DNA of 58,800 nucleotides, counting the filler. It is 4 parts of 4 records of this genome, joined end to end, with 100 filler letters (N's around TTAATTAATTAA, not from the genome) between each part and the next. Parts side by side here need not be neighbours in the genome. Positions count along the whole stretch, not along the records: positions 30,685 to 58,800 come from SRR22947725_1189; 3 more parts are not named here. One strand, given 5' to 3'. Positions 25,434 through 48,596 of the stretch are shown here, piece by piece (the stretch's first letter is position 1; every line of letters begins with the position of its first letter). The notes below the pieces were generated by a model that saw only the letters and a program-made list of their open reading frames with translations, searched no databases and had not been told where the DNA came from. The translations under genes and the position numbers were made by a program.

Positions 25434-25533
25434 NNNNNNNNNNNNNNNNNNNNNNNNNNNNNNNNNNNNNNNNNNNNTTAATTAATTAANNNNNNNNNNN
25501 NNNNNNNNNNNNNNNNNNNNNNNNNNNNNNNNN
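25434..25533. other. artificial contig linker
   Basis: 44 N + TTAATTAATTAA + 44 N. Confidence 0.99.
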
Positions 25534-25552
25534 TTAATTCCCTTCGTTTCAT
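25534..25552 (-). CDS. 5' stub of a gene with a twin-arginine-like start (MKRREL...), cut by the linker
   Basis: ATG at 25552 preceded by a strong RBS GGGAGGA. Confidence 0.5.
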
Positions 25553-25570
25553 ATTATATCCTCCCATTTT

Positions 25571-25597
25571 AATTATTGAATATCATATTCAATAATT
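25571..25597. promoter_or_regulatory. perfect 13-1-13 inverted repeat, putative operator
   Basis: AATTATTGAATAT-C-ATATTCAATAATT immediately upstream of the RBS of the MKRREL gene. Confidence 0.5.
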
Positions 25598-25670
25598 TAG
25601 ATATAATATTTATTACTTATTAATAAAAATCAATACCTTTAGAAAAGATGAAAAATATTGTTTATTAATG

Positions 25671-30684: not shown

Positions 30685-30685
30685 G

Positions 30686-32398: not shown

Positions 32399-32985
32399 TG
32401 GAAGAGCTTAAGAAGAATATAGTTTTAATTGGTGGTGGAGGTCATTGTGTTTCTGTAATAGATATTATCGAAAATGGAAATGAATTTAATATTATAGGTA
32501 TAATAGATACTAGTAATTTTGAAAATAATATTTTAGGCTATAAAATATTAGGAGATGATAATTTAATTCCTGAATTAGTTAATGAAAATACCTATTTTTT
32601 AATTACAGTAGGACAAATAAAGAGTTACTCCATAAGAAAAAATATATCAAAAATTTTGAAACAAAACAATGCAAAACTAGCCACTGTTATATCTCCTCTA
32701 GCTTATGTCTCTAAATATGCATCTGTTGAAGAAGGTTCAATTATAATGAATCACGCAGTTGTAAATGCTAAATCTAGAATTGGAAAGAATTGTATAATAA
32801 ATACTAAGTCGAATATTGAACATGGCGTTTTAATTGAGGACTATTGTCATATCTCTACATGTGCCGTTGTAAATGGTGACGTTATAATTAAAAAAGGATC
32901 TTTTATTGGAAGTAATGCAACTATTTCTAATGGAGTTTTAATTGAAGAGAATAGTATCATCAGTGCAGGTAAATTTATTAAATAA
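32398..32985 (+). CDS. NeuD/PglD-family hexapeptide N-acetyltransferase
   Basis: IGGGGH, left-handed beta-helix repeats, IEH. Confidence 0.88.
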   Translation: MEELKKNIVLIGGGGHCVSVIDIIENGNEFNIIGIIDTSNFENNILGYKILGDDNLIPELVNENTYFLITVGQIKSYSIRKNISKILKQNNAKLATVISPLAYVSKYASVEEGSIIMNHAVVNAKSRIGKNCIINTKSNIEHGVLIEDYCHISTCAVVNGDVIIKKGSFIGSNATISNGVLIEENSIISAGKFIK

Positions 32986-34007
32986 TGAATAAAACTATAA
33001 TAATTGCTGAAGCTGGAGTTAACCATAACGGAGATATTCAAAAAGCTAAAAGACTTATTGATGTAGCTGTCGATTCTGGAGTTGATTATGTGAAGTTTCA
33101 AACATTTAAAGCAGAAACAATAGTTAGTCCAAGTGCAAAAAAAGCAAACTATCAATCTAAAAATATAAATGATAGTGACGATTCTCAATTTAGAATGCTC
33201 AAAAATTTAGAGTTAACAGATGAGGATCACCAAGAACTAATCATTTATTGTAATGAAAAAGGAATTAAGTTTTTTTCTACAGCTTTTGATGTAGAAGGTG
33301 TAAACTATTTAGATTCACTAAATTTTGATTTTTTTAAAATACCAAGTGGAGAAATAACAAATTACCCTTATTTAAGAGCTGTCTCTGAAAAACGTAAACC
33401 TATAATTTTATCTACCGGAATGGCTACTCTTGATGAGATAGAAAAAGCGTTAGATGTTATTTATGAATTTGGAGTAAATCGGAAAGACGTTACTATTTTA
33501 CATTGTAATACAGAATACCCTACACCAATGGGTGATGTTAATTTAAAGGCAATGAATTCTATAGGAGAAAAATTTGATGTTAAAATTGGATATTCAGATC
33601 ATACGCTAGGTATTGAAATTCCAATAGCTGCAGTTGCTTTAGGGGCTGTTGTTATTGAAAAACATTTTACGTTAGATAGAAATCTTCCAGGACCAGATCA
33701 TAAGGCTTCATTAGAACCATTAGAATTAAAGAAAATGGTAACTTCTATTAGGAATGTTGAAGAATCAATTTCTGGAAACGGAGAGAAAAAACCAAGTATA
33801 AGTGAGTCAAAAAATATTTTCATTACTCGTAAAAGTATTCACCTGAATAAAGATATGAGTAAAGGAAGAGTCATATCAGAAAAAGATATTATTCCATTAA
33901 GACCAGGGGATGGAATTTCTGCATTTCATTGGAATGATGTGATTGGTAAGAAACTAAATATAGATAAAGCTGGGTTTGATAAATTAAATTGGAGTGATTT
34001 AACATGA
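32985..34007 (+). CDS. neuB: nonulosonic (legionaminic) acid synthase, LegI/NeuB
   Basis: IAEAGVNHNG, KIPSGE, LHCNTEYP, GYSDHT, EKHFTLD, C-terminal AFP-like domain. Confidence 0.93.
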   Translation: MNKTIIIAEAGVNHNGDIQKAKRLIDVAVDSGVDYVKFQTFKAETIVSPSAKKANYQSKNINDSDDSQFRMLKNLELTDEDHQELIIYCNEKGIKFFSTAFDVEGVNYLDSLNFDFFKIPSGEITNYPYLRAVSEKRKPIILSTGMATLDEIEKALDVIYEFGVNRKDVTILHCNTEYPTPMGDVNLKAMNSIGEKFDVKIGYSDHTLGIEIPIAAVALGAVVIEKHFTLDRNLPGPDHKASLEPLELKKMVTSIRNVEESISGNGEKKPSISESKNIFITRKSIHLNKDMSKGRVISEKDIIPLRPGDGISAFHWNDVIGKKLNIDKAGFDKLNWSDLT

Positions 34008-35110
34008 AAATAGGAGTATTAACCAGCTCAAGAGCGGATTATGGGATTTATAAGCCTTTGCTTTCTAAACTATCTTTTGATACTAGATTTGATTTATCTA
34101 TTATTGTTTTTGGAATGCATTTGCAGACTCAACATGGTAATACAGTTGGCGCAATTGAGAATGATAATTTTGGAATTATTCATAGAGTAGAAGGAATGCC
34201 AACAAAGGATTCTACTTTAGATATATCAAAAGGATACGGACAAATAATTACCAAGTTTTCTTATTATTGGAATACAAATAAGTTTGACTGTGTATTAGCA
34301 TTAGGAGATCGATTTGAAATGAGCGCTGCTGTTCAAGCTGGAATTCCATTTAATATTAAATTTGCTCATTTACACGGTGGAGAAACAACAAAAGGTGCTA
34401 TTGATAATATCTATAGACATCAAATAACGCTAGCTTCAAAAATTCATTTTGTCTCTTCTGAAAAATTCATTAAAAGAGTTGAAAACTTAATTAATGATTC
34501 AAAAAACATCTATAATGTAGGTGCATTAAGTTTAGATGGAATTAATGAAATAAAATTACCAAATTGGAAAGATGTTAGAGAAAAATTCAATATACCAGAT
34601 AAGCCATTTACATTAGTCACGTTTCATCCAGAGACAATTAATATTGAGAGAAATGATTTTTTCTCTTCTATAATTTATAGTACACTTGAAGTTATATGTA
34701 AAGATAAACATGTAGTAATTACGTTGCCAAATGCTGATACTATGGGAAGTGTGTTTAGAAATTCATTTTTAAAAATAAAAGAAAACTACCCTGAAAATAT
34801 TTCTCTGGTAAAAAGTTTTGGTAAAGAAAATTATTTTTCAGCAATGAAAGCCTCAGAGTTGTTAATAGGGAATTCTTCTAGTGGAATTTTGGAAGCAGCC
34901 TCTTTCGGTAAATTTGTAATAAATGTTGGAGAAAGACAATCTGGTCGATTAAAAAGTGAAAATGTAATTGATGTCCCGTTTAATAAAGAAGAAATAATTA
35001 ATAGCGTAAAAAAAATAGCTACTAATAAAGAATATATTGGAGGTAATGTATATTACAAGTCAGATACTGCAAAAAAAATAATTGAAATTTTAGCTAAGAA
35101 TGAACTATAA
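34004..35110 (+). CDS. neuC: hydrolysing NDP-sugar 2-epimerase, LegG/NeuC
   Basis: SRADYG, LGDRFE, HLHGGE, GNSSSG, GERQ.GR. Confidence 0.93.
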   Translation: MKIGVLTSSRADYGIYKPLLSKLSFDTRFDLSIIVFGMHLQTQHGNTVGAIENDNFGIIHRVEGMPTKDSTLDISKGYGQIITKFSYYWNTNKFDCVLALGDRFEMSAAVQAGIPFNIKFAHLHGGETTKGAIDNIYRHQITLASKIHFVSSEKFIKRVENLINDSKNIYNVGALSLDGINEIKLPNWKDVREKFNIPDKPFTLVTFHPETINIERNDFFSSIIYSTLEVICKDKHVVITLPNADTMGSVFRNSFLKIKENYPENISLVKSFGKENYFSAMKASELLIGNSSSGILEAASFGKFVINVGERQSGRLKSENVIDVPFNKEEIINSVKKIATNKEYIGGNVYYKSDTAKKIIEILAKNEL

Positions 35111-36143
35111 AAAACACTTAATTGAAGAAAAGAGTACAATTAAAAAGGCTTTAGAATTGTTAGGTAAAGCTGGTGAAGAAACAATTTTATTTGTCGTTAA
35201 TGGCATGCATGAATTAAAAGGAAGTATAACAGATGGTGATGTTCGAAGAGGTTTGTTAAAAGGCTTGTCAATTAATGATGATATTTATAAGGTTTTAAAT
35301 GAAAAACCAAAGTTTATAAAAAAAGAAAATTATTCTATTGATGAGATCAAAAACTTAAGAGATAACAACTATCATATTATACCAGTTTTAGATAAGAATA
35401 ATGTGATATTAAATATTTTAAATTTTAAGTTATTAAAATCATATTTACCAATAGACTCTGTAGTTATGGCAGGAGGGTTAGGAAGCCGATTAAAGCCTTT
35501 AACAGATAGTGTACCAAAACCATTATTAAAAGTTGGAGATAAAACAATAATAGATCACAATATTGACAGATTAAGGAAGTTTGGAATTGATGATTTTTGG
35601 ATTTCAGTTCGTTATTTAGGAGAACAAATTGAAGATCATTTTAAAGATGGAAAGAGTAGGGATATTAAAGTTGAATATGTTTATGAAGATAGCCCTTTAG
35701 GTACTATTGGAGCTGTAAGTCAAATACGCAACTTTAATCATGACTATATTTTGATAACTAATTCTGATATTTTAACGAATTTAAATTACGAAGACTTTTT
35801 TATTGATTTTATAAATAAAGATGCTGATATGTCTGTGTTAACAATACCTTACAATGTAGATATTCCTTATGCTGTTATGGAAACAAAAGATAATAGAGTG
35901 TTGTCATTTAAGGAAAAACCAACCTACACATATTATTCTAATGGGGGGGTATATCTTATTAAAAAATCGATTTTAGGTAAAATACCTAAAGATCAATTTT
36001 TTAACAGTACGGATTTAATGGAGCAATTGATAAAAGAAAACCTTAAATTAATTTCCTATCCAATGCGTAAATATTGGTTGGATATAGGCAGCCTAAAAGA
36101 TTATGCAAAGGCCCAAGAAGATATTAAGCACATAAATTTTTAG
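35100..36143 (+). CDS. CBS-domain sugar-phosphate nucleotidyltransferase (PtmE/LegX-like)
   Basis: N-terminal CBS (ITDGDVRRG), MAGGLGSRL, PKPLL, WLDIG. Confidence 0.88.
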   Translation: MNYKKHLIEEKSTIKKALELLGKAGEETILFVVNGMHELKGSITDGDVRRGLLKGLSINDDIYKVLNEKPKFIKKENYSIDEIKNLRDNNYHIIPVLDKNNVILNILNFKLLKSYLPIDSVVMAGGLGSRLKPLTDSVPKPLLKVGDKTIIDHNIDRLRKFGIDDFWISVRYLGEQIEDHFKDGKSRDIKVEYVYEDSPLGTIGAVSQIRNFNHDYILITNSDILTNLNYEDFFIDFINKDADMSVLTIPYNVDIPYAVMETKDNRVLSFKEKPTYTYYSNGGVYLIKKSILGKIPKDQFFNSTDLMEQLIKENLKLISYPMRKYWLDIGSLKDYAKAQEDIKHINF

Positions 36144-36144
36144 G

Positions 36145-36867
36145 ATGAAAATATTGATTACAATTTGTGGGCGTGGTGGATCAAAGGGAATTCCAGGGAA
36201 AAATATTAAAGTAATTTCAGGAAAACCTCTTATTAATTATACGATTGAGCTAACAGAAAGAATCAAAGAAAAATGGAATGCTAAAGTCGCACTGTCAACT
36301 GATGATGAATTAATAAAAAAAGCTGCAGAAAAATGTAATTTATTTACAGAATATATAAGACCTTCTGTTTTGGCTTCTGATAGTGCAGGTAAAATAGATA
36401 CTATATTAGATTTACTTACCTATGAGGAATCTTTATTAAATCATAAATTTGATTACATTCTAGATTTAGACATAACTTCACCCCTCAGGACTCTAGATGA
36501 TATTGAGAACTCTTTTGATTTAATACACAATAATCCTAATGCACTCACTTTGTTTTCAGTAAATGCTGCACAGAGGAATCCTTATTTTAATATGGTCGAA
36601 GAGAATTCTTCGGGGTTTTATACTTTAGTTAAGAAAGATGAGCAAGGAGCAGTTATGACTAGACAGAGCGCACCCAAAGTGTATGATTTAAACGCCTCTT
36701 TTTATTGGTACAAAAGAATTTTTTTTGATATGGAATTGAAGTCTCCAATCACTAATAAATCGTTAATTTATGAAATGGATCATGTTTGTTTTGATTTAGA
36801 TCATCCAGTAGATTTTTTGTTTTTAGAGTATTTATTAGATAATAAAAAATTGGATTTTATACGATGA
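36145..36867 (+). CDS. neuA: CMP-nonulosonic acid synthetase (LegF/NeuA family)
   Basis: RGGSKGIPGKN, STDD, TSPLR, RQ.AP. Confidence 0.9.
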   Translation: MKILITICGRGGSKGIPGKNIKVISGKPLINYTIELTERIKEKWNAKVALSTDDELIKKAAEKCNLFTEYIRPSVLASDSAGKIDTILDLLTYEESLLNHKFDYILDLDITSPLRTLDDIENSFDLIHNNPNALTLFSVNAAQRNPYFNMVEENSSGFYTLVKKDEQGAVMTRQSAPKVYDLNASFYWYKRIFFDMELKSPITNKSLIYEMDHVCFDLDHPVDFLFLEYLLDNKKLDFIR

Positions 36868-37799
36868 ATGTATTAATAATTGGATTAGGGTCTATTGCTA
36901 AGAAGCATATTGAAGCTTTACATTCCTTGAAACTTGATTTTGAAATTTATGCTCTAAGATCAAAAAAGAATTCTAAAAAATATCAAGGGGTTACTAATTT
37001 ATATAATTTAAAAAAAGCTAATTTAGTTTTTGATTTTGCTATTATATCTAATCCAACACATCTTCACTTAAAGTATATTGAAATATTAATGCAAAGAGAT
37101 GTGAATCTTTTTATAGAAAAGCCACCATTACATAGTTTACAAGGAGTTGAAAGTTTGATACTTAAATTAAAAGAAAAGAACATATCTACATATGTAGCTT
37201 GTAACCTAAGGTTTCATCCATGTATTCTTTTTCTTAAAAAGTATATTAATGAAAACAATCTAAAAATAATAAACGAAGTAAATGTTTATTGTGGCTCTTA
37301 CTTACCTGATTGGAGGCCAAACACGGATTTTAGAAAAATTTATAGCGCGAACCCAGAATTAGGAGGAGGAGTTCATTTAGACTTGTTTCATGAGTTAGAT
37401 TATACACATTGGCTATTTGGAAAGCCTGTTAATACTCATCGATTTACCAGAAGCGTTTCATCTCTTGATATTTGTTCTATTGACTATGCTAATTATATTT
37501 TAGAATACGAAAAATTTACAGTTAATATTATTCTTAATTATTTTCGAAAAGATTCTAAACGCACAATTGAAATTTTATTTGATGATGAGACATTTATCAT
37601 AGATTTAATTAATAATACAATTATTAACAGTAAAGGAGAAGTTATTTATAAGAATGAAGAATTTAAAATATTAGATACTTATAGAAATCAAATGAATTTA
37701 TTTGTTAATAATTTGAAGAAAAATAAAAAACAAATTAATACTTTCGCGAACTCAATTGATGTCCTTAAAACATGTTTAAGTGGAGAAATTACTAGATAA
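36864..37799 (+). CDS. Gfo/Idh/MocA oxidoreductase (PtmF/ElaA-like)
   Basis: GLGSIA, EKP, YLPDWRP..DFR..YSA...GGGV.LD..HELD. Confidence 0.88.
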   Translation: MNVLIIGLGSIAKKHIEALHSLKLDFEIYALRSKKNSKKYQGVTNLYNLKKANLVFDFAIISNPTHLHLKYIEILMQRDVNLFIEKPPLHSLQGVESLILKLKEKNISTYVACNLRFHPCILFLKKYINENNLKIINEVNVYCGSYLPDWRPNTDFRKIYSANPELGGGVHLDLFHELDYTHWLFGKPVNTHRFTRSVSSLDICSIDYANYILEYEKFTVNIILNYFRKDSKRTIEILFDDETFIIDLINNTIINSKGEVIYKNEEFKILDTYRNQMNLFVNNLKKNKKQINTFANSIDVLKTCLSGEITR

Positions 37800-38523
37800 T
37801 AAAGTTATAATTGTAACAGGAGGAAATGGCTTACTTGGCCGTGAAATTGTTAAAGAAGTATTAGAGAATGGCGGGATTTGTATTAACATTGATATAAATC
37901 ATGAAACAACGAATGATTTGTCCTTACTGAAAGGAGATGTTACAAATCCTGATTCAATAAATAAATGTTTAAAATTAATTATTAGTAAATATAAAAGAAT
38001 AGATGGCTTAGTTAATAATGCGTATCCTAGAACTGCTGATTGGGGAACTAAATTTGAAAATGTTAAATATGATTCTTGGAAGAAAAATATAGATTTTCAA
38101 ATGAACAGTTATTTTTATCTTTCTCAGCAAGTTTCTAAATATATGATAATCCAGAAATCAGGTTCAATAATAAATATGGCCTCTGTATATGGTAGTGTAG
38201 GACCAGACTTTACAGTTTATGATGATACAGAGATGACTATGCCAGTTGCTTACTCAGCAATTAAAGGAGGTATAATTAACTTAAGTCGTTATTTAGCTTC
38301 TTATATAGGAAAGTATAAAATAACAGTGAATACAATATCTCCTGGTGGGATTTTTGATGATCAGAATCCAATTTTTGTCGAAAATTATAATAAAAAAGTA
38401 CCCATGAGAAGAATGGGCTTGCCAAAAGATATATCTCCCACAGTAGTTTTTTTATTGTCCGAAGGTGCAAGGTATATTACAGGTCAAAATATAATTATTG
38501 ATGGTGGTTGGACTGCGATTTAA
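37780..38523 (+). CDS. short-chain dehydrogenase (PtmA/ElaC-like)
   Basis: TGGNGLLG, NNAYPR, YSAIK, SPGGI. Confidence 0.88.
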   Translation: MEKLLDNKVIIVTGGNGLLGREIVKEVLENGGICINIDINHETTNDLSLLKGDVTNPDSINKCLKLIISKYKRIDGLVNNAYPRTADWGTKFENVKYDSWKKNIDFQMNSYFYLSQQVSKYMIIQKSGSIINMASVYGSVGPDFTVYDDTEMTMPVAYSAIKGGIINLSRYLASYIGKYKITVNTISPGGIFDDQNPIFVENYNKKVPMRRMGLPKDISPTVVFLLSEGARYITGQNIIIDGGWTAI

Positions 38524-38542
38524 ATTAATAAAAAATAAAATT

Positions 38543-39688
38543 ATGAGTAAAAAGAAAGTTTTTTGGTGTAAAACATGTTTAAATATGTCTACTAGACCTA
38601 GAATTGAATTTGATTCTAATGGAAGTTGTAATGCTTGTCTTAGAACTGAAGAAAAGAAAACTATAGATTGGGGGAATAGAAATGATGAATTGAAATTATT
38701 ATTAGATAAATATAGATCTAAAGATGGGGGGTTTGATTGTGTAGTCCCATGTAGTGGTGGGAAAGATGGTTCACATGTTGCTTACAATTTAAAACATAAA
38801 TATGGAATGAATCCTTTAGCTGTAACCATAAGACCAGCACTTTCCATGGAGTTAGGAGATAAAAATTTGTATAATTTTATACATTCAGGATATAATCATA
38901 TACATGTTACACCAAACCCAAAAGTTATGCAGGTATTAAACAAATACGGTTTTATCGAAAAAGGTTTTCCATATTATGGATGGTTAATAGCGATTCATAC
39001 AGCAGTCATTAGAACTGCTTATAACTTTAATGTACCATTAATTTTTTATGGAGAAGATGGTGAAGTTGAATACGGCGGTTCAGTAGAAAATAAAGACAGA
39101 GCTTTATATGACATAGATTACATGAAAAGAGTTTACCTTGAAGGGGGGTATGAGAAAGTGTTGAAAAAGGCTGTAGATGATGGGACATTAGAGCCTAATG
39201 ATCTTTATTTTTTTAATTTTCCAGATGATAAAGAAGTGAAGAGAAAAAATCTTTCTTTTACTCATTGGTCATATTTTGAAAATTGGGATCCTTATACAAA
39301 TTATTTGACTGCAAAAAATCATTGTGGTCTTTTAGAAAAGGATGATGCTAATTCTGGGACTTTCACTAATTTTGCTCAAAATGATCAAGCATTATATTCT
39401 TTACATGCATATTTAATGTATTTAAAGTTTGGGTTTGGTCGTGCTACACAAGACGCAGGAATTGAAATAAGAAGAAAAGCTATGACCAGAGAACAGGCTT
39501 TGAATTTGGTTAAAATTTACGATAATATGTATCCAAGTGAACATATAGAAGATTATTTAGAATATTATCAGATGACAAAGGAAGAATTTGATGTTGTAAT
39601 AGATAAATGGGTAAACAAAGATTTATTTGATAAAATTGACGGATTTTGGAGTCCAAAATTTGAAGTTGGACAAGATTTTGAAATTTAA
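38543..39688 (+). CDS. N-acetyl sugar amidotransferase (WbuX/PseA/PtmG-like, PP-loop)
   Basis: CxxC...TRP...CNAC, SGGKDGS, YGE, KFGFGRA. The likely ATG is at 38543. Confidence 0.9.
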   Translation: MSKKKVFWCKTCLNMSTRPRIEFDSNGSCNACLRTEEKKTIDWGNRNDELKLLLDKYRSKDGGFDCVVPCSGGKDGSHVAYNLKHKYGMNPLAVTIRPALSMELGDKNLYNFIHSGYNHIHVTPNPKVMQVLNKYGFIEKGFPYYGWLIAIHTAVIRTAYNFNVPLIFYGEDGEVEYGGSVENKDRALYDIDYMKRVYLEGGYEKVLKKAVDDGTLEPNDLYFFNFPDDKEVKRKNLSFTHWSYFENWDPYTNYLTAKNHCGLLEKDDANSGTFTNFAQNDQALYSLHAYLMYLKFGFGRATQDAGIEIRRKAMTREQALNLVKIYDNMYPSEHIEDYLEYYQMTKEEFDVVIDKWVNKDLFDKIDGFWSPKFEVGQDFEI

Positions 39689-39694
39689 AAAGTA

Positions 39695-40300
39695 ATGAAA
39701 ATAGTCATCGTTGATTATGGAATGGGTAATATTTATTCACTTCAAAGTGCATTAAAATATTTAGGATATAATAGTATTTGTTCAAAAGATCATAATGAAA
39801 TAGTAAATTCAGATAAAATAATTTTACCAGGAGTTGGGTCATTTAAAAACGCGATGGAAAATGTAAAAAAGTTGGAATTAGATTTATCTATTGCAGAAGC
39901 TGTTAGAGTAAAACAGACACCTATATTAGGTATATGTCTTGGTATGCAATTACTAGGAATTAGTAGTACTGAAGATGGTCTTTCTAAAGGATTAAATTTG
40001 TTTTCTGGGACAGTTGACAAGTTTAAAGATAAATCTTTTAAAGTACCACACGTTGGTTTTAATAATGTCCAATATCCTTCTGGAAGTGTTCTATATAATG
40101 GGATTAATGAAAACTCTGATTTTTATTTTGTTCATAGTTACAAAATGCAAACAGATCAAAATGGTGGTGTAGCCTTCTGCTCACATGGCGAAAAATTTGT
40201 TGCATCATTTGAGCAAGACAATATCTTTGGAACTCAGTTTCATCCAGAGAAAAGTCAAACTAACGGTTTGTTATTACTTAAAAATTTTATAAAATTTTAG
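39695..40300 (+). CDS. HisH-like glutamine amidotransferase (WbuY-like)
   Basis: DYGMGN, LPGVG, GICLGMQ, QFHPEKS. Sits inside the polysaccharide locus. Confidence 0.9.
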   Translation: MKIVIVDYGMGNIYSLQSALKYLGYNSICSKDHNEIVNSDKIILPGVGSFKNAMENVKKLELDLSIAEAVRVKQTPILGICLGMQLLGISSTEDGLSKGLNLFSGTVDKFKDKSFKVPHVGFNNVQYPSGSVLYNGINENSDFYFVHSYKMQTDQNGGVAFCSHGEKFVASFEQDNIFGTQFHPEKSQTNGLLLLKNFIKF

Positions 40301-40303
40301 ATT

Positions 40304-41077
40304 ATGAGGAAAAAGCGTTTAATTTTTACTTTACTTTATAATAATGGGCACTTTATGTTAAGTAGAAATTTTAGGCTTCAGAAAGTTGGAGATTTTAATT
40401 GGCTAAAGAAACATTATAATTTTGAAAAAATAGCTTTTTCTATAGATGAACTTATTATATTGGATGTTACAAGAGAAAATAGAAATATTAATGATTTTGC
40501 TTGTTCTGTAAAAGAAGTTATAAAAAACGTTTTTATACCAGTTGCTTGCGGTGGTGGAATTCATACAATGGAAGACGCTAAATTATTACTTAATTCTGGA
40601 GCAGATAAGATAGTTTTAAATAGTTCATTAAATAATAATAAAATACTAGTTAAAAATTTGATAAAGAATTATGGGTCGCAATTTATAGTTGGTTCTGTTG
40701 ATTTTGCCATAGAAAATAATATTAGAAATGTATATATAGAAAATGGTACAGTTAAGATTGAAAAAAAATTAGAAGATTATTTGTTAGATGTGGAACAATT
40801 ATCAATTGGTGAAATATATTTAAATTCAATTCAAAAAGACGGTACAGGACAAGGATATGATATTTCATCAATTAATGATCTTTTAAATAAGATTACAATA
40901 CCAGTTATCTTAGCAGGAGGTGCTGGTAATCATTTGCATTTAATTGATGGTTTAAAAAGAGAGAATATTGATGCTGTCGCCACTGCTAATTTATTTAATT
41001 TTCTTGGTGATGGTTTGCCTCAATCAAGAAAACAAATTCTTGAGAAAAATATAAATATAGCAAAATGGAATATTTAA
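40304..41077 (+). CDS. HisF-like cyclase-fold subunit (WbuZ-like)
   Basis: DEL..LD, GGGI, GADK, DGTGQGYD, GGAG. Divergent N-terminus. Confidence 0.85.
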   Translation: MRKKRLIFTLLYNNGHFMLSRNFRLQKVGDFNWLKKHYNFEKIAFSIDELIILDVTRENRNINDFACSVKEVIKNVFIPVACGGGIHTMEDAKLLLNSGADKIVLNSSLNNNKILVKNLIKNYGSQFIVGSVDFAIENNIRNVYIENGTVKIEKKLEDYLLDVEQLSIGEIYLNSIQKDGTGQGYDISSINDLLNKITIPVILAGGAGNHLHLIDGLKRENIDAVATANLFNFLGDGLPQSRKQILEKNINIAKWNI

Positions 41078-42030
41078 AAAGTGAGATTTGTGAAGTAGAT
41101 TTAATAAATCAAAATATAGTATTCATTGATGGATTAACAAGAGTTGGGAAATCGATGTTAAATGTTTTAGTTGCCTCATTGGATAAACTATCGCATCCAC
41201 AATTTTTTGAACCTTTAGAGCAACTATTACCTATGTACAAAAACGGTAACATGGATAAAAGCTCTATATCTTCATTTTTGCGTTTACAACTAAATGAAAA
41301 ATATTACAATTATTCTTTATCTAGAAATTTGAATTTTAGGTATGATGACTTGACAAGTATTCATAATTCAAACAATCCTAGTTTTTTTTTAAAAAATTTA
41401 TCAAAACTAGATGGAAAAATAGTTAACGATAATACAATTCATCAATTTCAAACCCACGATGTTTTAACACAATATAAGTTTTTTTTAGATTTAAATATAA
41501 ATGTAAAAGTAATTGAGCTTTTTAGAAATCCAATTGATACTATCCATTCTTGGTATAAAAGAGGTTGGGGAAACAGATTTGATAAAGAAGATCCTTTAAG
41601 TTTTACTAGTTTATTCAGATTCAGAAATAAAACTTTACCTCATTATGCAATTGGTTGTGAGGAGAAATATTTTTCACTGAATGAAATGGAAAAATGTGTT
41701 TTTTTACATAACCTACTTCTTAAAATGTCATTACAAGAATACCAGAATCTAACTCGTAAGCAAAAAGAAAATATATTATTAATTAAGTTTGAGGATGTAA
41801 TCTCTAATCCAGAGATAGAAATTGATAGAATTTGTTATTTTTTAAATTCAAGTAAAACAGAGTTTACCGCTAAGGCATTTATAAAAGCTAAAGTACCAAG
41901 AGTTATAAGTTTAGATAAAAGAGTTGAAAAGCTAAATGAAATAAAAAAAGCCGTTAGCCAGGAACTTTACGATGATTTAATAGATTTAGAAAATCAGTTT
42001 AATAATAATTTATATAAATTAATAAAATAA
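41065..42030 (+). CDS. sulfotransferase-fold protein
   Basis: 5'-PSB-like IDGLTRVGKS, 3'-PB-like RNPIDTIHSW and FEDVISNP motifs. Confidence 0.7.
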   Translation: MEYLKSEICEVDLINQNIVFIDGLTRVGKSMLNVLVASLDKLSHPQFFEPLEQLLPMYKNGNMDKSSISSFLRLQLNEKYYNYSLSRNLNFRYDDLTSIHNSNNPSFFLKNLSKLDGKIVNDNTIHQFQTHDVLTQYKFFLDLNINVKVIELFRNPIDTIHSWYKRGWGNRFDKEDPLSFTSLFRFRNKTLPHYAIGCEEKYFSLNEMEKCVFLHNLLLKMSLQEYQNLTRKQKENILLIKFEDVISNPEIEIDRICYFLNSSKTEFTAKAFIKAKVPRVISLDKRVEKLNEIKKAVSQELYDDLIDLENQFNNNLYKLIK

Positions 42031-42035
42031 ATATA

Positions 42036-43133
42036 ATGGTAATTTGGCTTATCGGCTTATCAGCATCTGGGAAAACTACAATAGGTAAGAAATTGATTGA
42101 AAAATTAACCATTTCAAAAGACAAATGGATTTTTCTTGATGGTGATACGGTTAGAAACATGCTTGGTGAAGACTTAGGACATACAATAGAAGATAGGAGA
42201 AAAAATGCTTTTCGAATTAGTAGAATATGTGAATTTTTAAGTTCTCAGAATATCAATGTTGTAGCTTGTGTTCTATCTATATTTCATGACAATCAACGAT
42301 ATAATAAGGAGAATATACCAAACTATAAAGAAGTTTATATAGATGTTGAATTTAATGAGCTTTTAAAAAGAGATAATAAGGAATTGTACAGTAAAGCCAT
42401 AAAAGGTGAAATTACTAATGTTGTTGGAGTAGATATTGAATTTTTGCCACCGTACTCACCAGATTTAATTATAGATAACAATAAATTAAGGTCAGATTTT
42501 GAAGATATAACTTCTAATATAATTTCAGAATTTAAAATTGTAATTGAAAATGATTATTCTTATACGAGTAATAACTTATTAATAAACCCTCATAAATATC
42601 AATATTCAAAATATGAAGGAAAAGCTTTCTTTTACAAATTTGTTGATGATAGAGAGAGTGCAAATATTTTTCTAGGAAAACGACTAGAAAAACTAAAACG
42701 ATATAACTTTTCAGGCCTAACAACATATACTAAAACTCACAAAATTAAAGATAGTTTATTTTTACGAGACTACTTGTTGAATTTATTGGAAAGCAATAAA
42801 GAAAATCTAGATAAAAACTTTAGTATAATTAAAGTTTTAATTCAAAGATTTGAGGTATCCAAGAAACTTTATATAAGCTATGATAGTCTAAGGGTCAGAA
42901 AAAACACTGAAGATTATTCGGAATTATTAAATTATCCACTTTTTTCTTTAGTATTGCAGAAATATTATGAACTTGAAGATAGTGAAGATAGAAAGTTAGT
43001 TTACTTAAACGCAATTTTAAAAACGAATGATATAATATCCTCAATAAAGGAAGATATGATAATTCTTAATGAAATAGAATATTCTATAAGAGCAATCAGT
43101 GGAGAGTTAAACATAATAAGTAGATATTTATGA
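42036..43133 (+). CDS. APS-kinase-fold kinase (Cj1415 cytidine diphosphoramidate kinase-like) fused to an unknown ~190-aa C-terminal domain
   Basis: GLSASGKTT, LDGD, RD.K.LY. Has LSIF and NVVGVDIEF rather than the ISPY and NFTGI..PYE motifs of true CysC. Confidence 0.8.
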   Translation: MVIWLIGLSASGKTTIGKKLIEKLTISKDKWIFLDGDTVRNMLGEDLGHTIEDRRKNAFRISRICEFLSSQNINVVACVLSIFHDNQRYNKENIPNYKEVYIDVEFNELLKRDNKELYSKAIKGEITNVVGVDIEFLPPYSPDLIIDNNKLRSDFEDITSNIISEFKIVIENDYSYTSNNLLINPHKYQYSKYEGKAFFYKFVDDRESANIFLGKRLEKLKRYNFSGLTTYTKTHKIKDSLFLRDYLLNLLESNKENLDKNFSIIKVLIQRFEVSKKLYISYDSLRVRKNTEDYSELLNYPLFSLVLQKYYELEDSEDRKLVYLNAILKTNDIISSIKEDMIILNEIEYSIRAISGELNIISRYL

Positions 43134-43873
43134 TGAATTATTCAATGTTGTTAATTAACAATAACCGCTCAAAGGCCTACTTGCAAAATTTAATACTTAA
43201 TGGGTTTATTCCAAAGAAAATTATACTTCTTAATGATAAGAATATTAATTTACCTGAGCATACAGAAAATGATAAACTAATTAGCAAGAAAACTAATCAG
43301 AAATTTATTCGAGAATTAAAAGATTTGAATATAAAGTTTGATGAGAAAGAACATGTTTTAGCAACAATTGAAAATAATAACATTGATTATGTTATTGTTG
43401 ATACTTTAAATATCAATAGTGAAGAAGTTGTAGCAGAAGTAAAAAACACCCCAACTGATTATTTAGTATATTCAGGCCCTGGAGGAACTATTTTGAGAAA
43501 AAAAATTCTTTCACAAGGTAAAAAATTTATACATGTTCATCCTGGTTGGTTACCTAGTTATAGAGGAAGTACAACAATATATTATTCTTTGCTAATTGAT
43601 TCAGAAGTTGGTGCTAGTGTAATAATATTTGAGGAAGGGATAGATGAAGGCCCTATTTTATATAAGAAAAAATATAAAATTGAAGAAAAAGGTATTGATT
43701 TAGATTATGTTCTTGATCCATTAGTAAGAGCAAAAACACTTGTCTCTTTTTTTAAACAAGAAAAAATCACCATAACTATGCAAAAAGAGGAAGAAAAGGT
43801 AAATACATTTTATATTGTGCATCCATTTATTAAACATGCTTCAATAATAAAATACAATGCCAAAAAAGCATAA
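43130..43873 (+). CDS. formyltransferase-family protein
   Basis: HVHPGWLPSYRG and GIDEGPI formyl-THF-binding motifs. Confidence 0.8.
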   Translation: MMNYSMLLINNNRSKAYLQNLILNGFIPKKIILLNDKNINLPEHTENDKLISKKTNQKFIRELKDLNIKFDEKEHVLATIENNNIDYVIVDTLNINSEEVVAEVKNTPTDYLVYSGPGGTILRKKILSQGKKFIHVHPGWLPSYRGSTTIYYSLLIDSEVGASVIIFEEGIDEGPILYKKKYKIEEKGIDLDYVLDPLVRAKTLVSFFKQEKITITMQKEEEKVNTFYIVHPFIKHASIIKYNAKKA

Positions 43874-44002: not shown

Positions 44003-46390
44003 ATGAGGAAATTTTCAGATAAGTACAAACTTAGTGGGACAAAAGCAGAAACACTAGATTTTCTATCCCAAGCGGGGTATTCGGTTCCAAAAGTTCATTA
44101 TTTCACAGTCAAAGATTGGAACTCTAATAAAGATGCAATTATAGAGAATCTCATGACTCTCTTTTCGAATGATCTATTAGCTATACGAAGTAGTACAAAA
44201 GCAGAGGATACTGCAGATTCTTCAATGGCTGGTGCTTTTGAAAGTATTTTAAATGTTAAACTTGAGAGAGAATCAGTTATATCTGCAATTAATTCAGTTA
44301 TTGATTCTTTTGATGATGATGATAGTAATCAGGTATTAGTTCAACCCATGGTGAAAGATGTTGCTATGAGCGGTGTAGTTATGACTCAAGTTCTTGATGA
44401 CGGTTCTCCATACCACGTTGTTAATTATGATGACAGTTCTGGTTTAACTGATACGGTTACTAGTGGGGCAACTATAAACAAAACAGTTTACTTATATAAT
44501 GGAGTAGATACAAAAGATTTTGACTCCCAATATTTATTAGCTGTTCTGAAACTAATTCGGAATTTACAAAAGACCTTTCCTGATATACCAATGGATATTG
44601 AATTTGCCATTGATAAATCAATGAATATGCACTTATTACAAGTGCGTAAAATAACTACAATTACAAAATGGAAAAAAAATATAAATGATTATGTATCTGC
44701 TAGAATGTTATTCCTAAGGGATTATGTTCAGCAACTAATGCAAAAAAGAACAAATCTATATGGGGACAGGACATTGTTAGGTATTATGCCTGATTGGAAT
44801 CCTGCAGAAATGATAGGAGTTGTGCCTCATCCATTAGCTTTCTCTTTATATAGAGAGCTTATAACCAAAAGAACATGGAGTATTTCTAGGGAAATTATGG
44901 GGTATAGAAAAATGCCAAATACTGAATTGATGGTCTCTTTATTTGGTAGATCATATATTGATGTTAGAAATAGTATAAATTCATTTCTACCTGAGGGTCT
45001 TTCAAAAAATATTTCTGAAAAATTGGTTAATGCATACATAAACAGATTAGACAATAACCCTCATTTACACGACAAAATTGAATTCGATGTAGTTCATACT
45101 TCATACGACTTCGATTTTGATAAGAATTTTGAAAGCAGATATAGTGGGTTATTAAATAAAGAAGAATTACTATCATATAAGGGCTTGTTACGAAATATTA
45201 CGAAGAAAGCTATTGACAATTCATATGACAACAGTTTAAATAGCTCAATTCGTGATATAGAAAAACTAAAAGTAATACAGAGTAAGGAAATTATTTATGA
45301 GAAAAACTCATTTTCAATAGCTGATAGAATTAATACACTTATAGATGAATGCATAAAATATGGTACAATTCCATTCGCAATTATTGCGAGACATGGCTTT
45401 ATTGCAGAGAATCTATTACGCTCCGCAGTAAGTAATAACGTTATATCTGAAAGTAGAATTAAAGAATTTAAAAGTAGTTTTAATACTGTAGCTGGAGATT
45501 TAAGTGATGATTTTCAAAAAGTTTTAAATCGAGAGATTTCTAAAGAAGTTTACCTAAATAAATATGGGCATTTAAGACCTGGGAGTTATGATATATTATC
45601 ACCAAATTATTCAAACAGGAAAGACTTATTTGATGGAATGCCTAGAGACTCTTCTGATTCCTATGATAATTTTGAATTAACAGAAAAAGAAATATCTGCT
45701 TTTAATATTATACTTGGAGAGCATGGTTTTGATAATACCAAGGCAGATGATATTATTAATTATTCAATAAAAGCAATTAAAGGGCGTGAATACGCAAAAT
45801 TTATTTTCACAAAACATTTATCCGATATTCTTGAGAGTATTTCAGAATGGGGAGTTAATGAAGGGTTTAGCAGGGGTGATATGTCAATGCTAACGATTAG
45901 TGATGTATTAAAAGTGCTTTTCACACCACTAACAGATGATGTGAAATCTTTTTATGAAAAGAAAATAAAAAAAGCAGAAACTAATTTTAAGATTGCATCT
46001 TCTTTTAAATTGAGTTACTTGATTAGATCTGTACGTGATGTCTATATTGTTCCAATGCAAAGAAGTACTGCAAATTTTATAGGGGATAAAAGGATAGAGG
46101 CAGAAATAATTGAATTGAATCCATATTTAACAGAAATACCACCTTTAGAAAACAAGATAATTTGTATTGAGGGAGCTGACCCTGGATATGATTGGATATT
46201 TACACGAAACATAGCTGGATTGATTACAAAATATGGTGGAGCAAATTCTCATATGGCAATTCGTAGTGCTGAATACAACTTACCGGCCGCAATAGGCTGC
46301 GGTGAGCAAACTTATAACAGAGTAGTTTCAACTAAAAAGTGTCTTTTAGATTGTCAAAGGAAAAATCTTGAACCAATTGAATTATCATAG
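44003..46390 (+). CDS. PPDK/PEP-synthase-family kinase, L-glutamine kinase (Cj1418-like)
   Basis: ATP-grasp AIRSS..ED...S.AG.F.S, DIEFA, LLQVR. Central MPDWNPAE and YGHLRPG.YDI. Phospho-His domain ADPGYDW and GGANSHMAIR. Confidence 0.88.
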   Translation: MRKFSDKYKLSGTKAETLDFLSQAGYSVPKVHYFTVKDWNSNKDAIIENLMTLFSNDLLAIRSSTKAEDTADSSMAGAFESILNVKLERESVISAINSVIDSFDDDDSNQVLVQPMVKDVAMSGVVMTQVLDDGSPYHVVNYDDSSGLTDTVTSGATINKTVYLYNGVDTKDFDSQYLLAVLKLIRNLQKTFPDIPMDIEFAIDKSMNMHLLQVRKITTITKWKKNINDYVSARMLFLRDYVQQLMQKRTNLYGDRTLLGIMPDWNPAEMIGVVPHPLAFSLYRELITKRTWSISREIMGYRKMPNTELMVSLFGRSYIDVRNSINSFLPEGLSKNISEKLVNAYINRLDNNPHLHDKIEFDVVHTSYDFDFDKNFESRYSGLLNKEELLSYKGLLRNITKKAIDNSYDNSLNSSIRDIEKLKVIQSKEIIYEKNSFSIADRINTLIDECIKYGTIPFAIIARHGFIAENLLRSAVSNNVISESRIKEFKSSFNTVAGDLSDDFQKVLNREISKEVYLNKYGHLRPGSYDILSPNYSNRKDLFDGMPRDSSDSYDNFELTEKEISAFNIILGEHGFDNTKADDIINYSIKAIKGREYAKFIFTKHLSDILESISEWGVNEGFSRGDMSMLTISDVLKVLFTPLTDDVKSFYEKKIKKAETNFKIASSFKLSYLIRSVRDVYIVPMQRSTANFIGDKRIEAEIIELNPYLTEIPPLENKIICIEGADPGYDWIFTRNIAGLITKYGGANSHMAIRSAEYNLPAAIGCGEQTYNRVVSTKKCLLDCQRKNLEPIELS

Positions 46391-47008
46391 ATGTATAGAT
46401 TTGGGATAACGATGCGGATTACAAACGACACTAGCTATGATGAACCAAGAGATTCAATAGCAAGTGATTGGTCGAAATATATGTTGTCAACTTTTCCAGA
46501 TTCCCAATTTATATTTATTCCTAATATTGAAGAAGATGTTGTGCATTATATTAATAAATGGAATATTGATGTGCTAATATTAAGCGGAGGAGATGATCTA
46601 GGAATTTTTCCCGCTCGTGATAAAACGGAAACATTGGCTTTTTTATATGCTTTAAAAATGAGAATCCCTATCGTTGCGGTTTGCCGAGGCTTACAACTGG
46701 TTCATTCCTATTATGGAGGGAAATTAAAATCTGGTGATAATAAGTTTATAGAAAAACATCGAGCAACAAAACATTTAATTAATATGGATAATCATTCTAT
46801 TGAAGTTAACTCTTATCATACTTATAAAATTATAGAAGAAACAGTCAATAAGGATTTTGAAATATTTGCTAGATGTAAAGATGATAATTCGATTGAAGGC
46901 TTGAGGAATAAACAAATACTAGGAATGATGTGGCATCCTGAGAGAGATGAGTCAATTGCAAATTGGAACAAATTATTAATTGAGAAATTTATTAAAAATG
47001 AAAGATAG
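46391..47008 (+). CDS. class I amidotransferase-fold gamma-glutamyl-CDP-amidate hydrolase (Cj1417-like)
   Basis: GIT.R, LSGGDD, VCRGLQ, NSYH, MWHPER. Directly follows the kinase. Confidence 0.85.
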   Translation: MYRFGITMRITNDTSYDEPRDSIASDWSKYMLSTFPDSQFIFIPNIEEDVVHYINKWNIDVLILSGGDDLGIFPARDKTETLAFLYALKMRIPIVAVCRGLQLVHSYYGGKLKSGDNKFIEKHRATKHLINMDNHSIEVNSYHTYKIIEETVNKDFEIFARCKDDNSIEGLRNKQILGMMWHPERDESIANWNKLLIEKFIKNER

Positions 47009-47744
47009 AGCATTAATATTAGCAGCAGGGAGAGGTTCTCGAATGGGTGCGGAAACTGCATTAAAACCAAAATGTCTAACCGTGTTGGCCGGGAAACAAC
47101 TTCTCCAATGGCAACTTGATTCCCTAAAAGGTGCTGGAATTGAAAATGTAACAGTCGTTCGTGGGTATAGATCAGAAATGTTGCAAGGTGAATTTTCTGT
47201 AATAAATAATATAAGATGGAGTGATACTAATATGGTATATTCTTTGTTTTGTGCGCCTTCATTTAATGGTAATACAATAATATCATATTCTGATATTGTT
47301 TATAAAGAAGAGCATATAGTAAAGCTAAATAAATCAAATAAAGATATAACTATTACTGCGGATAAGTGTTGGGAAGAATTATGGAGACTGCGATTTGAAG
47401 ACCCTTTTGATGATGCAGAAACATTTAAAAGTGATGGAGGGAAACTTCTTGAAATTGGTGGGAAGACTCGAAACGCAGATGATATTGAAGCGCAGTATAT
47501 GGGGCTTTTGAAATTAACTAAGAATGGATGGAATATTATTTATGAAGTATTTCAATCATTGACAGACAAGGAGAAAGATAAAATGGACATGACAAGTATG
47601 TTAAACCTTCTGTTAAATAAGGGAATTAATATTAATGTAGTATTTGTTGAAGGAGGATGGTGCGAATCTGATGAGTATTCTGATGTTTTAGCCTATGAAA
47701 AAGAACTAAAGCTAAACAAAAACTGGAAACATAATTGGCGATAA
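46998..47744 (+). CDS. LicC-family cytidylyltransferase (Cj1416 phosphoglutamine cytidylyltransferase-like)
   Basis: ILAAGRGSRM, KPKCL, TNM.YSL, SYSDI, W..RF.DP..DAE, QYMGL. ATG at 46998. Confidence 0.85.
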   Translation: MKDRALILAAGRGSRMGAETALKPKCLTVLAGKQLLQWQLDSLKGAGIENVTVVRGYRSEMLQGEFSVINNIRWSDTNMVYSLFCAPSFNGNTIISYSDIVYKEEHIVKLNKSNKDITITADKCWEELWRLRFEDPFDDAETFKSDGGKLLEIGGKTRNADDIEAQYMGLLKLTKNGWNIIYEVFQSLTDKEKDKMDMTSMLNLLLNKGININVVFVEGGWCESDEYSDVLAYEKELKLNKNWKHNWR

Positions 47745-47840: not shown

Positions 47841-48596
47841 ATGATAGCCAAAGTAATTGAAATTGCACACCAAGCTTCATTTGAGGTTTTAAAAATTTAT
47901 AATAAAGGTATAATTCAAATACAATCAAAACAAGATAATTCTCCTGTAACTGAAGCTGATTTAATATCAAATAAAATTATTATCAATGGTTTAAGAAATA
48001 TATCTAATTACCCTATACTTACTGAAGAAAGTCCTGTGGAATATAAAGTAAGAAAAAATTGGACTAAATATTGGGTAGTAGACCCTCTTGATGGGACGAA
48101 AGATTTTATTGCGAAAAACGGAGGTTTTACTATTAACATTGCATTAATTGAAAATACCAAGCCTATTATGGGAGTGGTTCTTGTACCGGTTACTGGAGAG
48201 GTATATTATGCGGAACTAGGCAGAGGTTCATACAAGAATAATAAAAAAATTTTTAATAATTCAAAAAGAATTGATTTAATTGGAGCAGATAGTATTCATC
48301 ATTCTACAAAAGAGGTAGAATTGTTTTTTAAGAAACATAATATATCCAAAGTTCTAAAGTTAGGGTCTTCTATAAAAATTTGCAAGTTGGCTGAGGGAGA
48401 AGTTGATGTTTATCCCAGATTAAATGGAACAAAGGAGTGGGATACAGCTGCTAGCCATATCATAGCAAATGAGGCGGGTTGTCGGCTTATTGATACTGAA
48501 TCAAAAAAAGAATTAACTTACAATAAAAAGAGCCTGAAAAACAATCATTTTATTGCTATAAGGAACAATTTAGATTTGAAAAACGATTTTTACTAA
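47841..48596 (+). CDS. cysQ: 3'(2'),5'-bisphosphate nucleotidase
   Basis: SPVTEAD, TEE, VDPLDGTKDF, GSSIK, YPR..T.EWDTAA. Confidence 0.92.
   Translation: MIAKVIEIAHQASFEVLKIYNKGIIQIQSKQDNSPVTEADLISNKIIINGLRNISNYPILTEESPVEYKVRKNWTKYWVVDPLDGTKDFIAKNGGFTINIALIENTKPIMGVVLVPVTGEVYYAELGRGSYKNNKKIFNNSKRIDLIGADSIHHSTKEVELFFKKHNISKVLKLGSSIKICKLAEGEVDVYPRLNGTKEWDTAASHIIANEAGCRLIDTESKKELTYNKKSLKNNHFIAIRNNLDLKNDFY

Follow-up and report, generated by a model that had tools for sequence, protein, structure and literature searches.

A sulfotransferase-fold protein paired with a CDP-amidate cassette in a nonulosonate locus: a candidate phosphoramidyl transferase

Within a 58,800-nucleotide stretch of DNA (the window; its positions 30,685 to 58,800 come from record SRR22947725_1189), a locus for a legionaminic-acid-type nonulosonate contains, at 41065..42030 on the + strand, the gene for a 321-amino acid (aa) protein, P0001, of the sulfotransferase fold, and, downstream of it, homologues of the genes by which Campylobacter provides an activated phosphoramidate. 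The proposal considered here, whose probability is put at roughly one half, is that the enzyme would transfer a phosphoramidyl group from 3′-phospho-cytidine-5′-diphosphoramidate (3′-phospho-CDP-amidate; CDP, cytidine diphosphate), in place of the sulfate that most of its relatives would take from 3′-phosphoadenosine 5′-phosphosulfate (PAPS). That the occurrence of its family, of about 325 aa, beside an amidate cassette is more than coincidence is something to which the several origins of the pairing, the nature of one residue (34), the import of the sulfotransferase allele together with the cassette, and the lack of any other candidate recognisable in the window all point in the same way.

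In Campylobacter the donor is made by the successive action of Cj1418, Cj1416, Cj1417 and Cj1415, the pathway to O-methyl phosphoramidate (MeOPN), and Taylor and Raushel, in work on nucleoside diphosphoramidates, are said to have drawn the analogy to PAPS. A literature search found no paper linking the sulfotransferase fold to phosphoramidate transfer, and in another, on legionaminic or pseudaminic acid carrying sulfate or linked to a sulfotransferase, no such paper was evident on the face of the results.

The enzyme and its fold

The reading frame starts with an ATG in a 13-nt overlap with the end of the HisF/WbuZ gene and ends with a stop codon at 42028-42030, leaving a 5-nt gap before the ATG, at 42036, of a gene for a Cj1415-type kinase. 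On its product the Pfam model Sulfotransfer_1 (PF00685) scores 39.5 bits (cut-off 22) and Sulfotransfer_3 (PF13469) 26.4 bits, just below the cut-off of 27; a scan of NCBIfam gave no model for it. Fifty relatives at 45-83% identity, almost all metagenomic, were gathered, and an exhaustive search at E ≤ 1e-3 returned 895 cluster representatives, of which 109 pass E ≤ 1e-30. Given the Pfam score, the relatives and a confident AlphaFold2 (AF2) model (predicted local distance difference test, pLDDT, 96.5, from a 121-sequence alignment), the frame is evidently not a chance one. Foldseek yielded 92 PDB matches at E ≤ 1e-3, the top ones listed being sulfotransferases or the related retinol dehydratase. 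VIA-align placed TPST1/2 first (5wri: Z 15.9, root-mean-square deviation 3.4 Å, 227 residues), then CurM, OLS, Stf9 and HS 3-OST, its top 50 entries being sulfotransferases throughout (Z 15.9 down to 9.8), and the family profile, run against PDB sequences, met sulfotransferases, one related PAPS-dependent enzyme and nothing else. Because these approaches agree, the predicted fold can be considered secure. An earlier note on this stretch (the original prediction) had proposed that fold, and the frame, the two binding motifs and the short gap to the kinase gene are also as it described them.

The first of those motifs, the 5′-phosphosulfate-binding-type loop G23-LTRV-G28-K29-S30 (41131..41154), is modelled as strand 18-23, loop 24-28 and helix 29-37, with R26, G28 and K29 invariant, or nearly so, family-wide; strand-loop-helix with a conserved Lys/Arg and Gly is the definition of the motif in PMC11625862. 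In the 3′-phosphate-binding motif, R154-NPIDTIH-S162 (41524..41550), R154, D158 and S162 make up RxxxDxxxS, and the stretch aligns to RNPKDxxxS of SULT1C2. H131, in a T-H-D sequence (codon 41455..41457), is a candidate catalytic base; like E52, it is conserved in 90% or more of the 121 members. P-loop, RxxxDxxxS and fold are held in common with the PAPS sulfotransferases of PF00685 and PF13469 (TPST1/2, CurM, OLS, Stf9, HS 3-OST), but identity to the solved ones is 12-17%, the loop is R-x-G-K-[SAT] in the window family as opposed to K/R-x-G-T-T, and, unlike these enzymes with their solved structures, the family has no characterised member. A further difference is that the window gene is paired with a CDP-amidate cassette in place of one for PAPS. 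The Lys at the place of the more usual Thr, pointed out in the original prediction, is not peculiar to this locus: Lys29 is invariant in all 121 aligned members, those beside ATP sulfurylase included, and, being common to PAPS-type and amidate-type members alike, it says nothing on the donor.

Two donor cassettes, one family

Homologues of all four donor genes of the C. jejuni MeOPN pathway (Cj1415-Cj1418) are present in the window. The kinase (42036..43133, +; 365 aa), in which a Cj1415-type domain (residues 1-168) is fused to a helical domain, kinC (169-365), scores 174 bits on NF004041 (cut-off 127) versus 119 bits on TIGR00455, is 45% identical over 148 aa to the kinase of the Campylobacter MeOPN locus L178, and is placed in clade II of a kinase tree. 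The Cj1418-type L-glutamine kinase homologue, a phosphoenolpyruvate-utiliser of 795 aa (44003..46390, +), has 905 bits on NF004508 (cut-off 501) and 37% identity over 747 aa to its L178 counterpart. The homologue of the Cj1417-type gamma-glutamyl-CDP-amidate hydrolase (46391..47008, +), a class I glutamine amidotransferase, has 106.6 bits on NF045546, below the cut-off of 250 and so not at equivalog level; this is still its best NCBIfam model, the gene is at the expected cassette position, and on a hidden Markov model (HMM) built from cassette homologues it scores 230 bits. For the Cj1416-type cytidylyltransferase homologue (46980..47744, +) no curated model exists: Pfam offers only the generic NTP_transf_3, an HMM of the cassette gene gives 317 bits, and among PDB sequences the protein comes nearest to CTP:phosphocholine cytidylyltransferase. 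Searches of PDB sequences with the kinase, the Cj1418-like and the Cj1416-like proteins found generic relatives only and no C. jejuni structures. The tie to the Campylobacter pathway was made through Campylobacterales loci (six compared); in L178 the amidotransferase reaches 324.7 bits on NF045546, its 776-aa neighbour 1097 on NF004508 and the kinase 272 on NF004041. Pfam detected no ATP sulfurylase, of either the Sat or the CysD/N kind, in 58 window open reading frames (ORFs), which are all but a few short ones lying within annotated genes, and the original prediction was right on this point.

Relatives were collected from 83 loci, three in species genomes and 80 in metagenomes; for residue and tree work truncated copies of less than 280 aa were dropped (L027, L041, L042, L043, L076, L077) and L097 and L150, found from the other direction, were added. 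When 80 rows were classified by HMMs built from the cassette genes, 41 had PAPS-cassette neighbours (Sat, a pyruvate-kinase-like gene, TauE and mostly also adenosine 5′-phosphosulfate (APS) kinase and CysQ), 13 had the amidate cassette (Cj1418/1417/1416/1415-type), 26, mostly on short contigs, had neither, and none had both. In all amidate-type loci the cassette and the sulfotransferase gene adjoin each other. The expectation that homologues would track mainly with Cj1418-like genes does not hold for the family, the 41 PAPS-type loci being without glutamine kinase. On a maximum likelihood tree of the sulfotransferases, nonetheless, no fewer than 7-8 changes are required to account for the amidate type, whose members are scattered among PAPS-type rows; the window protein groups with L005 (amidate-type) and L004 (PAPS-type). 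Of three PAPS-type genomes checked, none has an APS kinase besides that of the locus, and this explains the presence of a donor cassette of the family's own.

The comparison with PAPS-type members is a close one: those of L004, L030, L012 and L001 (the last from an Arcobacteraceae metagenome-assembled genome) are 50-68% identical to the window enzyme, of the same length, in the same place after WbuX/HisH/HisF and with the same invariant residues. The window differs in that their neighbours are Sat, APS kinase, the pyruvate-kinase-like gene, TauE and CysQ, and in that their residue 34 is polar. Since WbuX/HisH/HisF adjoin the family nearly always, its acceptor is most likely an acetamidino-nonulosonate.

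Some peculiarities of these loci may be put on record. A pyruvate-kinase-barrel protein is a constant of the PAPS cassette (L001:13285-14265, L002:6927-8360, L003:10899-13088 and some 30 loci more); the L003 copy is a fusion with ATP sulfurylase, and in nine loci it accompanies APS kinase and/or TauE with Sat not detected even by HMM. In L005, which of the amidate-type loci is nearest to the window, a 580-aa protein of the Sulfatase/phosphodiesterase family is encoded between sulfotransferase and kinase (L005:11093-12835), and a second, short APS-kinase-like gene follows the Cj1416-like one (L005:18534-19061). A second, truncated sulfotransferase copy is present in the Magnetovibrio locus L150 (L150:5520-5969); its open frame covers 149 aa, and similarity continues downstream in a different frame.

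Residue 34

One site of the sulfotransferase tracks the neighbouring donor cassette. It is occupied in the window enzyme by Val34 (codon 41164..41166), six residues past G28 and within helix 29-37, and its column was picked by a scan on the first seven amidate-type proteins. Residue 34 is non-polar in all 12 unique amidate-type proteins (five Pro, three Gly, two Leu, one Val, one Ile) and polar in 32 of 33 PAPS-type proteins (14 Asn, nine Lys, three Ser and two each of Thr, Gln and Arg), the exception being L039, with Pro. It is also polar in all eight distinct proteins from loci that lack a complete cassette and are flanked by 5 kb or more on either side; three of these loci, which contain a pyruvate-kinase-like gene, are among those that the HMM classification assigned to the PAPS type. 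Five proteins classified later fit the pattern, with Pro in L097, L150, L056 and L074 and Gly in L036; L036, L056 and L074 are short contigs with fragments of the Cj1418-like or Cj1416-like gene, and on short contigs with TauE or pyruvate-kinase fragments the residue is polar. Fisher's test of residue 34 against cassette gives 4.5e-10 with no correction for phylogeny; in phylogenetically independent contrasts the direction is the same in 4.5 of 5 and opposite in 0. Among 294 variable columns scored for eight residue properties column 34 is the best, followed by column 268 with 3.5 of 5 contrasts, and no other column equals it as a marker of the cassette.

A structural rationale can be suggested. 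On a presumed alignment of the P-loop motifs, Leu84 of TPST1 and Ser1088 of HS2ST, three residues past the loop Gly (Ala in HS2ST), correspond to Met31 of the window enzyme; taking that equivalence as given, Val34 is one helical turn beyond, on the same face of helix 29-37. According to PMC9072872, adenine is contacted from the helix after the P-loop, hydrophobically by Leu84 of TPST1 and through a hydrogen bond to N7 by Ser1088 of HS2ST. By analogy, contact of residue 34 with the nucleobase is plausible.

Mosaic origin of the locus

The window locus has parts of differing affinity. From LegC through PtmA the best match is the PAPS-type locus L012 (57-80% identity), WbuX is 93% identical to those of L019 and L030, also PAPS-type, and the same three loci provide the nearest CysQ proteins (L030 83%, L012 80%, L019 79%). 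The sulfotransferase is only 51-53% identical to those of the PAPS-type loci that match its flanks; together with the kinase-kinC protein and FmtL, a formyltransferase-like protein, it matches the amidate-type loci L005 and L027 at 61-75%. With flanks of PAPS-type affinity around a sulfotransferase and cassette of amidate-type affinity, the comparison indicates that a PAPS cassette and its resident sulfotransferase were replaced between HisF and CysQ, and that CysQ (47841..48596, +), a 3′(2′),5′-bisphosphate nucleotidase by TIGR01331 (256.7 bits, cut-off 228.8), was apparently retained from the PAPS-type ancestor. The Cj1418-1416 genes (44003-47744) are closest to those of Bacteroidota genomes (56-75%; Draconibacterium L084, Salinivirgaceae L085). 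The housekeeping genes in window positions 1-27000 (RecA-RecX-AlaS, DarP, PmbA, MlaA, a sigma-54 activator) are presumably proteobacterial, to go by typical gene sets, and set against the Bacteroidota-like genes this suggests that the amidate cassette was acquired horizontally.

The rest of the locus and of the window

All genes of the locus are on the + strand, and its GC content is 26-31%, compared with 32-42% in the rest of the window. Upstream, as judged by Pfam and NCBIfam, are the genes of the legionaminic-acid-type nonulosonate pathway (31262..38523: LegC, NeuD-like, NeuB, NeuC, PtmE-like, cytidine monophosphate (CMP)-nonulosonate synthase, GFO oxidoreductase and PtmA-like short-chain dehydrogenase/reductase) and the trio WbuX, HisH and HisF/WbuZ (38498..41077), the N-acetyl-sugar amidotransferase that makes acetamidino groups and almost always adjoins the sulfotransferase family. 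Wzx, a GT4 glycosyltransferase and Wzy are at the other end. After Wzy there is an ORF of 395 aa (52986-54173, +) with no Pfam family, whose only relatives in the loci are in L030 and L012, both PAPS-type, at 24-25% identity; it may be a nonulosonate glycosyltransferase.

The kinC domain, the C-terminal 197 residues of the window kinase (42540-43133), is a separate gene in several loci and occurs in 35 of 164 sequences (163 loci and the window; for example L007:6084-6839 and L100:8695-9258), fused to or following a Cj1415-type kinase, with the formyltransferase-like gene usually next. It is a helical domain of about 190-250 aa with conserved Y-x-Y, FEVxKR and YLNxLLKxxD motifs, without meaningful match in Pfam at E ≤ 1 or usable match in the ESM Atlas; its model (pLDDT 87) is helical, and Foldseek against the PDB gave no match at E ≤ 1e-3 (best E 0.31) and detected no nucleotide-binding fold. 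FmtL (43130..43873, +; 247 aa) resembles the formyltransferase N-terminal domain (PF00551, E 4e-11) and keeps a stretch H-x-H-P-G-W-L-P-x-x-R-G, which is presumably the counterpart of the formyltransferase catalytic motif. Both are far commoner companions of the amidate cassette than is the sulfotransferase; they may act in tailoring the donor or the group that is transferred, or either could be the transferase itself.

Outside the locus, an ORF on the opposite strand (24149-24799, -; 216 aa) corresponds to the flavin adenine dinucleotide-binding C-terminal domain of DNA photolyase only, and 24800-25670, where the N-terminal domain would be expected, contains no ORF reaching 100 aa, which may mean that the gene is broken.

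Proposed mechanism

As envisaged, P0001 would be a soluble enzyme decorating the acetamidino-nonulosonic acid, of legionaminic-acid type, made by the upstream genes. Most of its relatives, supplied by their own PAPS cassette, would add sulfate there; in the window that cassette would have given way to the pathway of Cj1418, Cj1416, Cj1417 and Cj1415 types. The cytidine cofactor would occupy the PAPS site, with R26, G28 and K29 on the 5′-diphosphoramidate and R154 and S162 on the 3′-phosphate, and the phosphoramidyl group would pass by in-line transfer to the sugar hydroxyl (or amine) that relatives sulfate. Released cytidine 3′,5′-bisphosphate would be hydrolysed to CMP by the retained CysQ, and the product would be a monoanionic, tetrahedral phosphoramidate replacing a sulfate ester.

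The chemistry proposed is that assumed for Cj1421 and Cj1422, though the setting differs from that of C. jejuni in several respects. Its acceptor is a capsule heptose or N-acetylgalactofuranosamine (GalfNAc), as against a nonulosonate in a Wzx/Wzy locus on the present proposal; a DUF2972 protein and a Cj1419/1420-type methyltransferase are lacking from the scanned window ORFs; and kinC and FmtL, present in the window, are carried by none of the six Campylobacterales loci examined.

Other candidate transferases

Seen from the side of the glutamine kinase, the amidate cassette is common, the collection of species genomes containing no fewer than 586 relatives of this protein. In the best 80 Cj1418-like loci, those closest to the window, the kinase is present in 61, the Cj1417-like and Cj1416-like genes in 71 each, FmtL in 31 and kinC in 18. 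By position, TagF-like proteins of the CDP-glycerol glycerophosphotransferase family (PF04464), whose fold is unrelated to that of sulfotransferases, are candidate phosphoramidate transferases; in 12 loci (Pseudomonas, Aeromonas, Alteromonas and others) the gene is directly upstream of kinase-kinC-FmtL-Cj1418. Examples of the TagF-like genes are L100:7113-8171, L007:9710-10945 (after the Cj1416-like gene) and, in Campylobacterales, L181:12333-13436 (inside the cassette, which also holds CysQ). Pfam found no TagF-like, DUF2972 (PF11186), CDP-alcohol transferase or methyltransferase domain in the scanned window ORFs, and tblastn with the methyltransferases and TagF-like proteins of the loci found nothing in the window.

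For the Campylobacterales themselves attention is drawn to two of the six MeOPN-type loci, in which a PF13469 protein (cut-off 27) is encoded inside the cassette, with the kinase on one side and the methyltransferases or glutamine kinase on the other: L176:12776-14050 (-; 425 aa, 30.5 bits) and L177:13317-14729 (-; 471 aa, 38.3 bits), both with a P-loop of RSG/RTG type and an RD...S motif. In L176 a short DUF2972 protein is next to the Sulfotransfer_3 gene, as if a Cj1421/22-type protein had been split or assembled from both. The genetic evidence for Cj1421 and Cj1422 as transferases is given in PMC3907429, and they are described, in PMC5808241, as 600-aa proteins with an N-terminal region, a transmembrane segment and DUF2972; public names of C. 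jejuni DUF2972 proteins are 'DUF2972 domain-containing' or 'putative sugar transferase'. An hhalign comparison of the Cj1421/22-type profile with the family profile gave a weak match (E 6.8e-4, probability 27%, 122 columns over the 3′-phosphate motif and the region following). No member of the Cj1421/22-type alignment matches any sulfotransferase Pfam model at E ≤ 1, the profile found nothing in the PDB, and hhalign with single sequences was uninformative. The family of the window enzyme was not found in the six loci. The sulfotransferase-like proteins of these cassettes are a lead, not a result; if the lead is true, the sulfotransferase fold would be a general solution for phosphoramidate transfer, and the idea put forward here right in kind and not unique to this family.

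Weighing the alternatives

A number of results weigh against phosphoramidyl transfer by the window enzyme, and they are the substance of a serious rival, held to be less likely: that P0001 is an ordinary PAPS sulfotransferase acting on the acetamidino-nonulosonate with PAPS from housekeeping CysDN/Sat and CysC whose genes are elsewhere in the genome, the amidate cassette being an independent module in the same modification hot spot, served by kinC, by FmtL, by the 395-aa ORF at 52986 or by some gene that lies beyond the window. Taken as a whole the family is a PAPS family, its fold and every motif are as in PAPS enzymes, the cofactor-binding motifs are identical in the two classes, and the nearest relative, at 68% identity (L004), is PAPS-type. 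Given the 26 loci with neither cassette, and five distinct ones with long flanks and no cassette gene whatever, a donor cassette close by is not indispensable to the family. Both genomes holding an amidate-type sulfotransferase carry PAPS genes elsewhere (G001 has CysD and a second, canonical APS kinase; G002 two Sat and five APS-kinase-like genes) and, going by these genes, can probably make PAPS, which leaves whole-genome PAPS supply without discriminating power as a test of the donor. Only two of the best 80 Cj1418-like loci carry this sulfotransferase family and 78 do without it, so that the cassette works with other transferases: TagF-like genes are in 13 loci, including L007, which has the sulfotransferase as well, CDP-alcohol phosphatidyltransferase is in four Cj1418-like loci, and the Campylobacterales have their DUF2972 proteins of Cj1421/22 type. 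kinC, FmtL or the 395-aa ORF could be the real transferase, and CysQ fits the recycling of 3′-phosphoadenosine 5′-phosphate equally well. For residue 34 the statistics are post hoc, and with five contrasts the sign test reaches p = 0.06, the best that five pairs allow; a cytosine-specific change in amidate-type proteins is not demonstrated.

What such a PAPS sulfotransferase leaves unexplained is why none of the 13 amidate-type loci keeps any PAPS-cassette gene, why residue 34 is non-polar in these and polar in loci without a complete cassette, and why the resident sulfotransferase was replaced along with the cassette; nor is an alternative transferase family recognisable in the window, kinC being helical and with no nucleotide-binding fold detected. 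A transferase of dual specificity, taking PAPS or 3′-phospho-CDP-amidate as the cell supplies them, with residue 34 tuning the preference, would suit the seven or more changes of cassette type on the tree between proteins up to 68% identical, and the kinases that cross over too (three PAPS-type loci have clade-II, Cj1415-like kinases, and L097 a clade-I kinase); the strict split at residue 34 argues for specialisation, however, and this explanation is unlikely. That the PAPS module, when replaced, left this gene behind without a function, for which CysQ, looking like a leftover of the older locus, might seem a precedent, is very improbable: the frame is intact, all residues invariant in the 121 relatives are kept, the allele was imported and not left behind, and the same pairing recurs in about seven lineages. 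The original prediction, that 3′-phospho-CDP-amidate is bound in place of PAPS, fails for the family as a whole; for the window and about seven lineages phosphoramidyl transfer becomes a better-founded hypothesis, in view of the mutually exclusive cassettes, the replacement, residue 34, the absence of another transferase recognised in sequence and the occurrence of sulfotransferase-family proteins within MeOPN cassettes of Campylobacterales.

Significance

Reconstitution of the enzymatic transfer of phosphoramidate to bacterial surface sugars is still awaited, and in a Raushel laboratory publication of August 2025 (PMC12409886) the mechanism of the transfer is described as still to be elucidated. 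A soluble, 37-kDa enzyme of well-understood fold would make the question directly testable, helped by natural pairs of PAPS-type and amidate-type proteins that are 68% identical and by one candidate specificity residue. The glutamine-kinase cassette is itself a common one.

A wider proposal may be entertained tentatively, at somewhat less than even chances. It is that one family switches repeatedly between PAPS and 3′-phospho-CDP-amidate and so modifies the same nonulosonic-acid position with sulfate or the isosteric phosphoramidate, with residue 34 as the switch (polar for adenosine, non-polar for cytidine) and whole donor cassettes exchanged between WbuX/HisHF and CysQ as fixed flanks, and that by extension phosphoramidate transfer generally, that by the Campylobacter MeOPN transferases included, is sulfotransferase-fold chemistry. 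If true, sulfate and phosphoramidate would be interchangeable decorations of the cell surface, swapped as cassettes, which would be relevant to the variation of antigens and phage receptors and to growth when sulfur or phosphorus is limiting.

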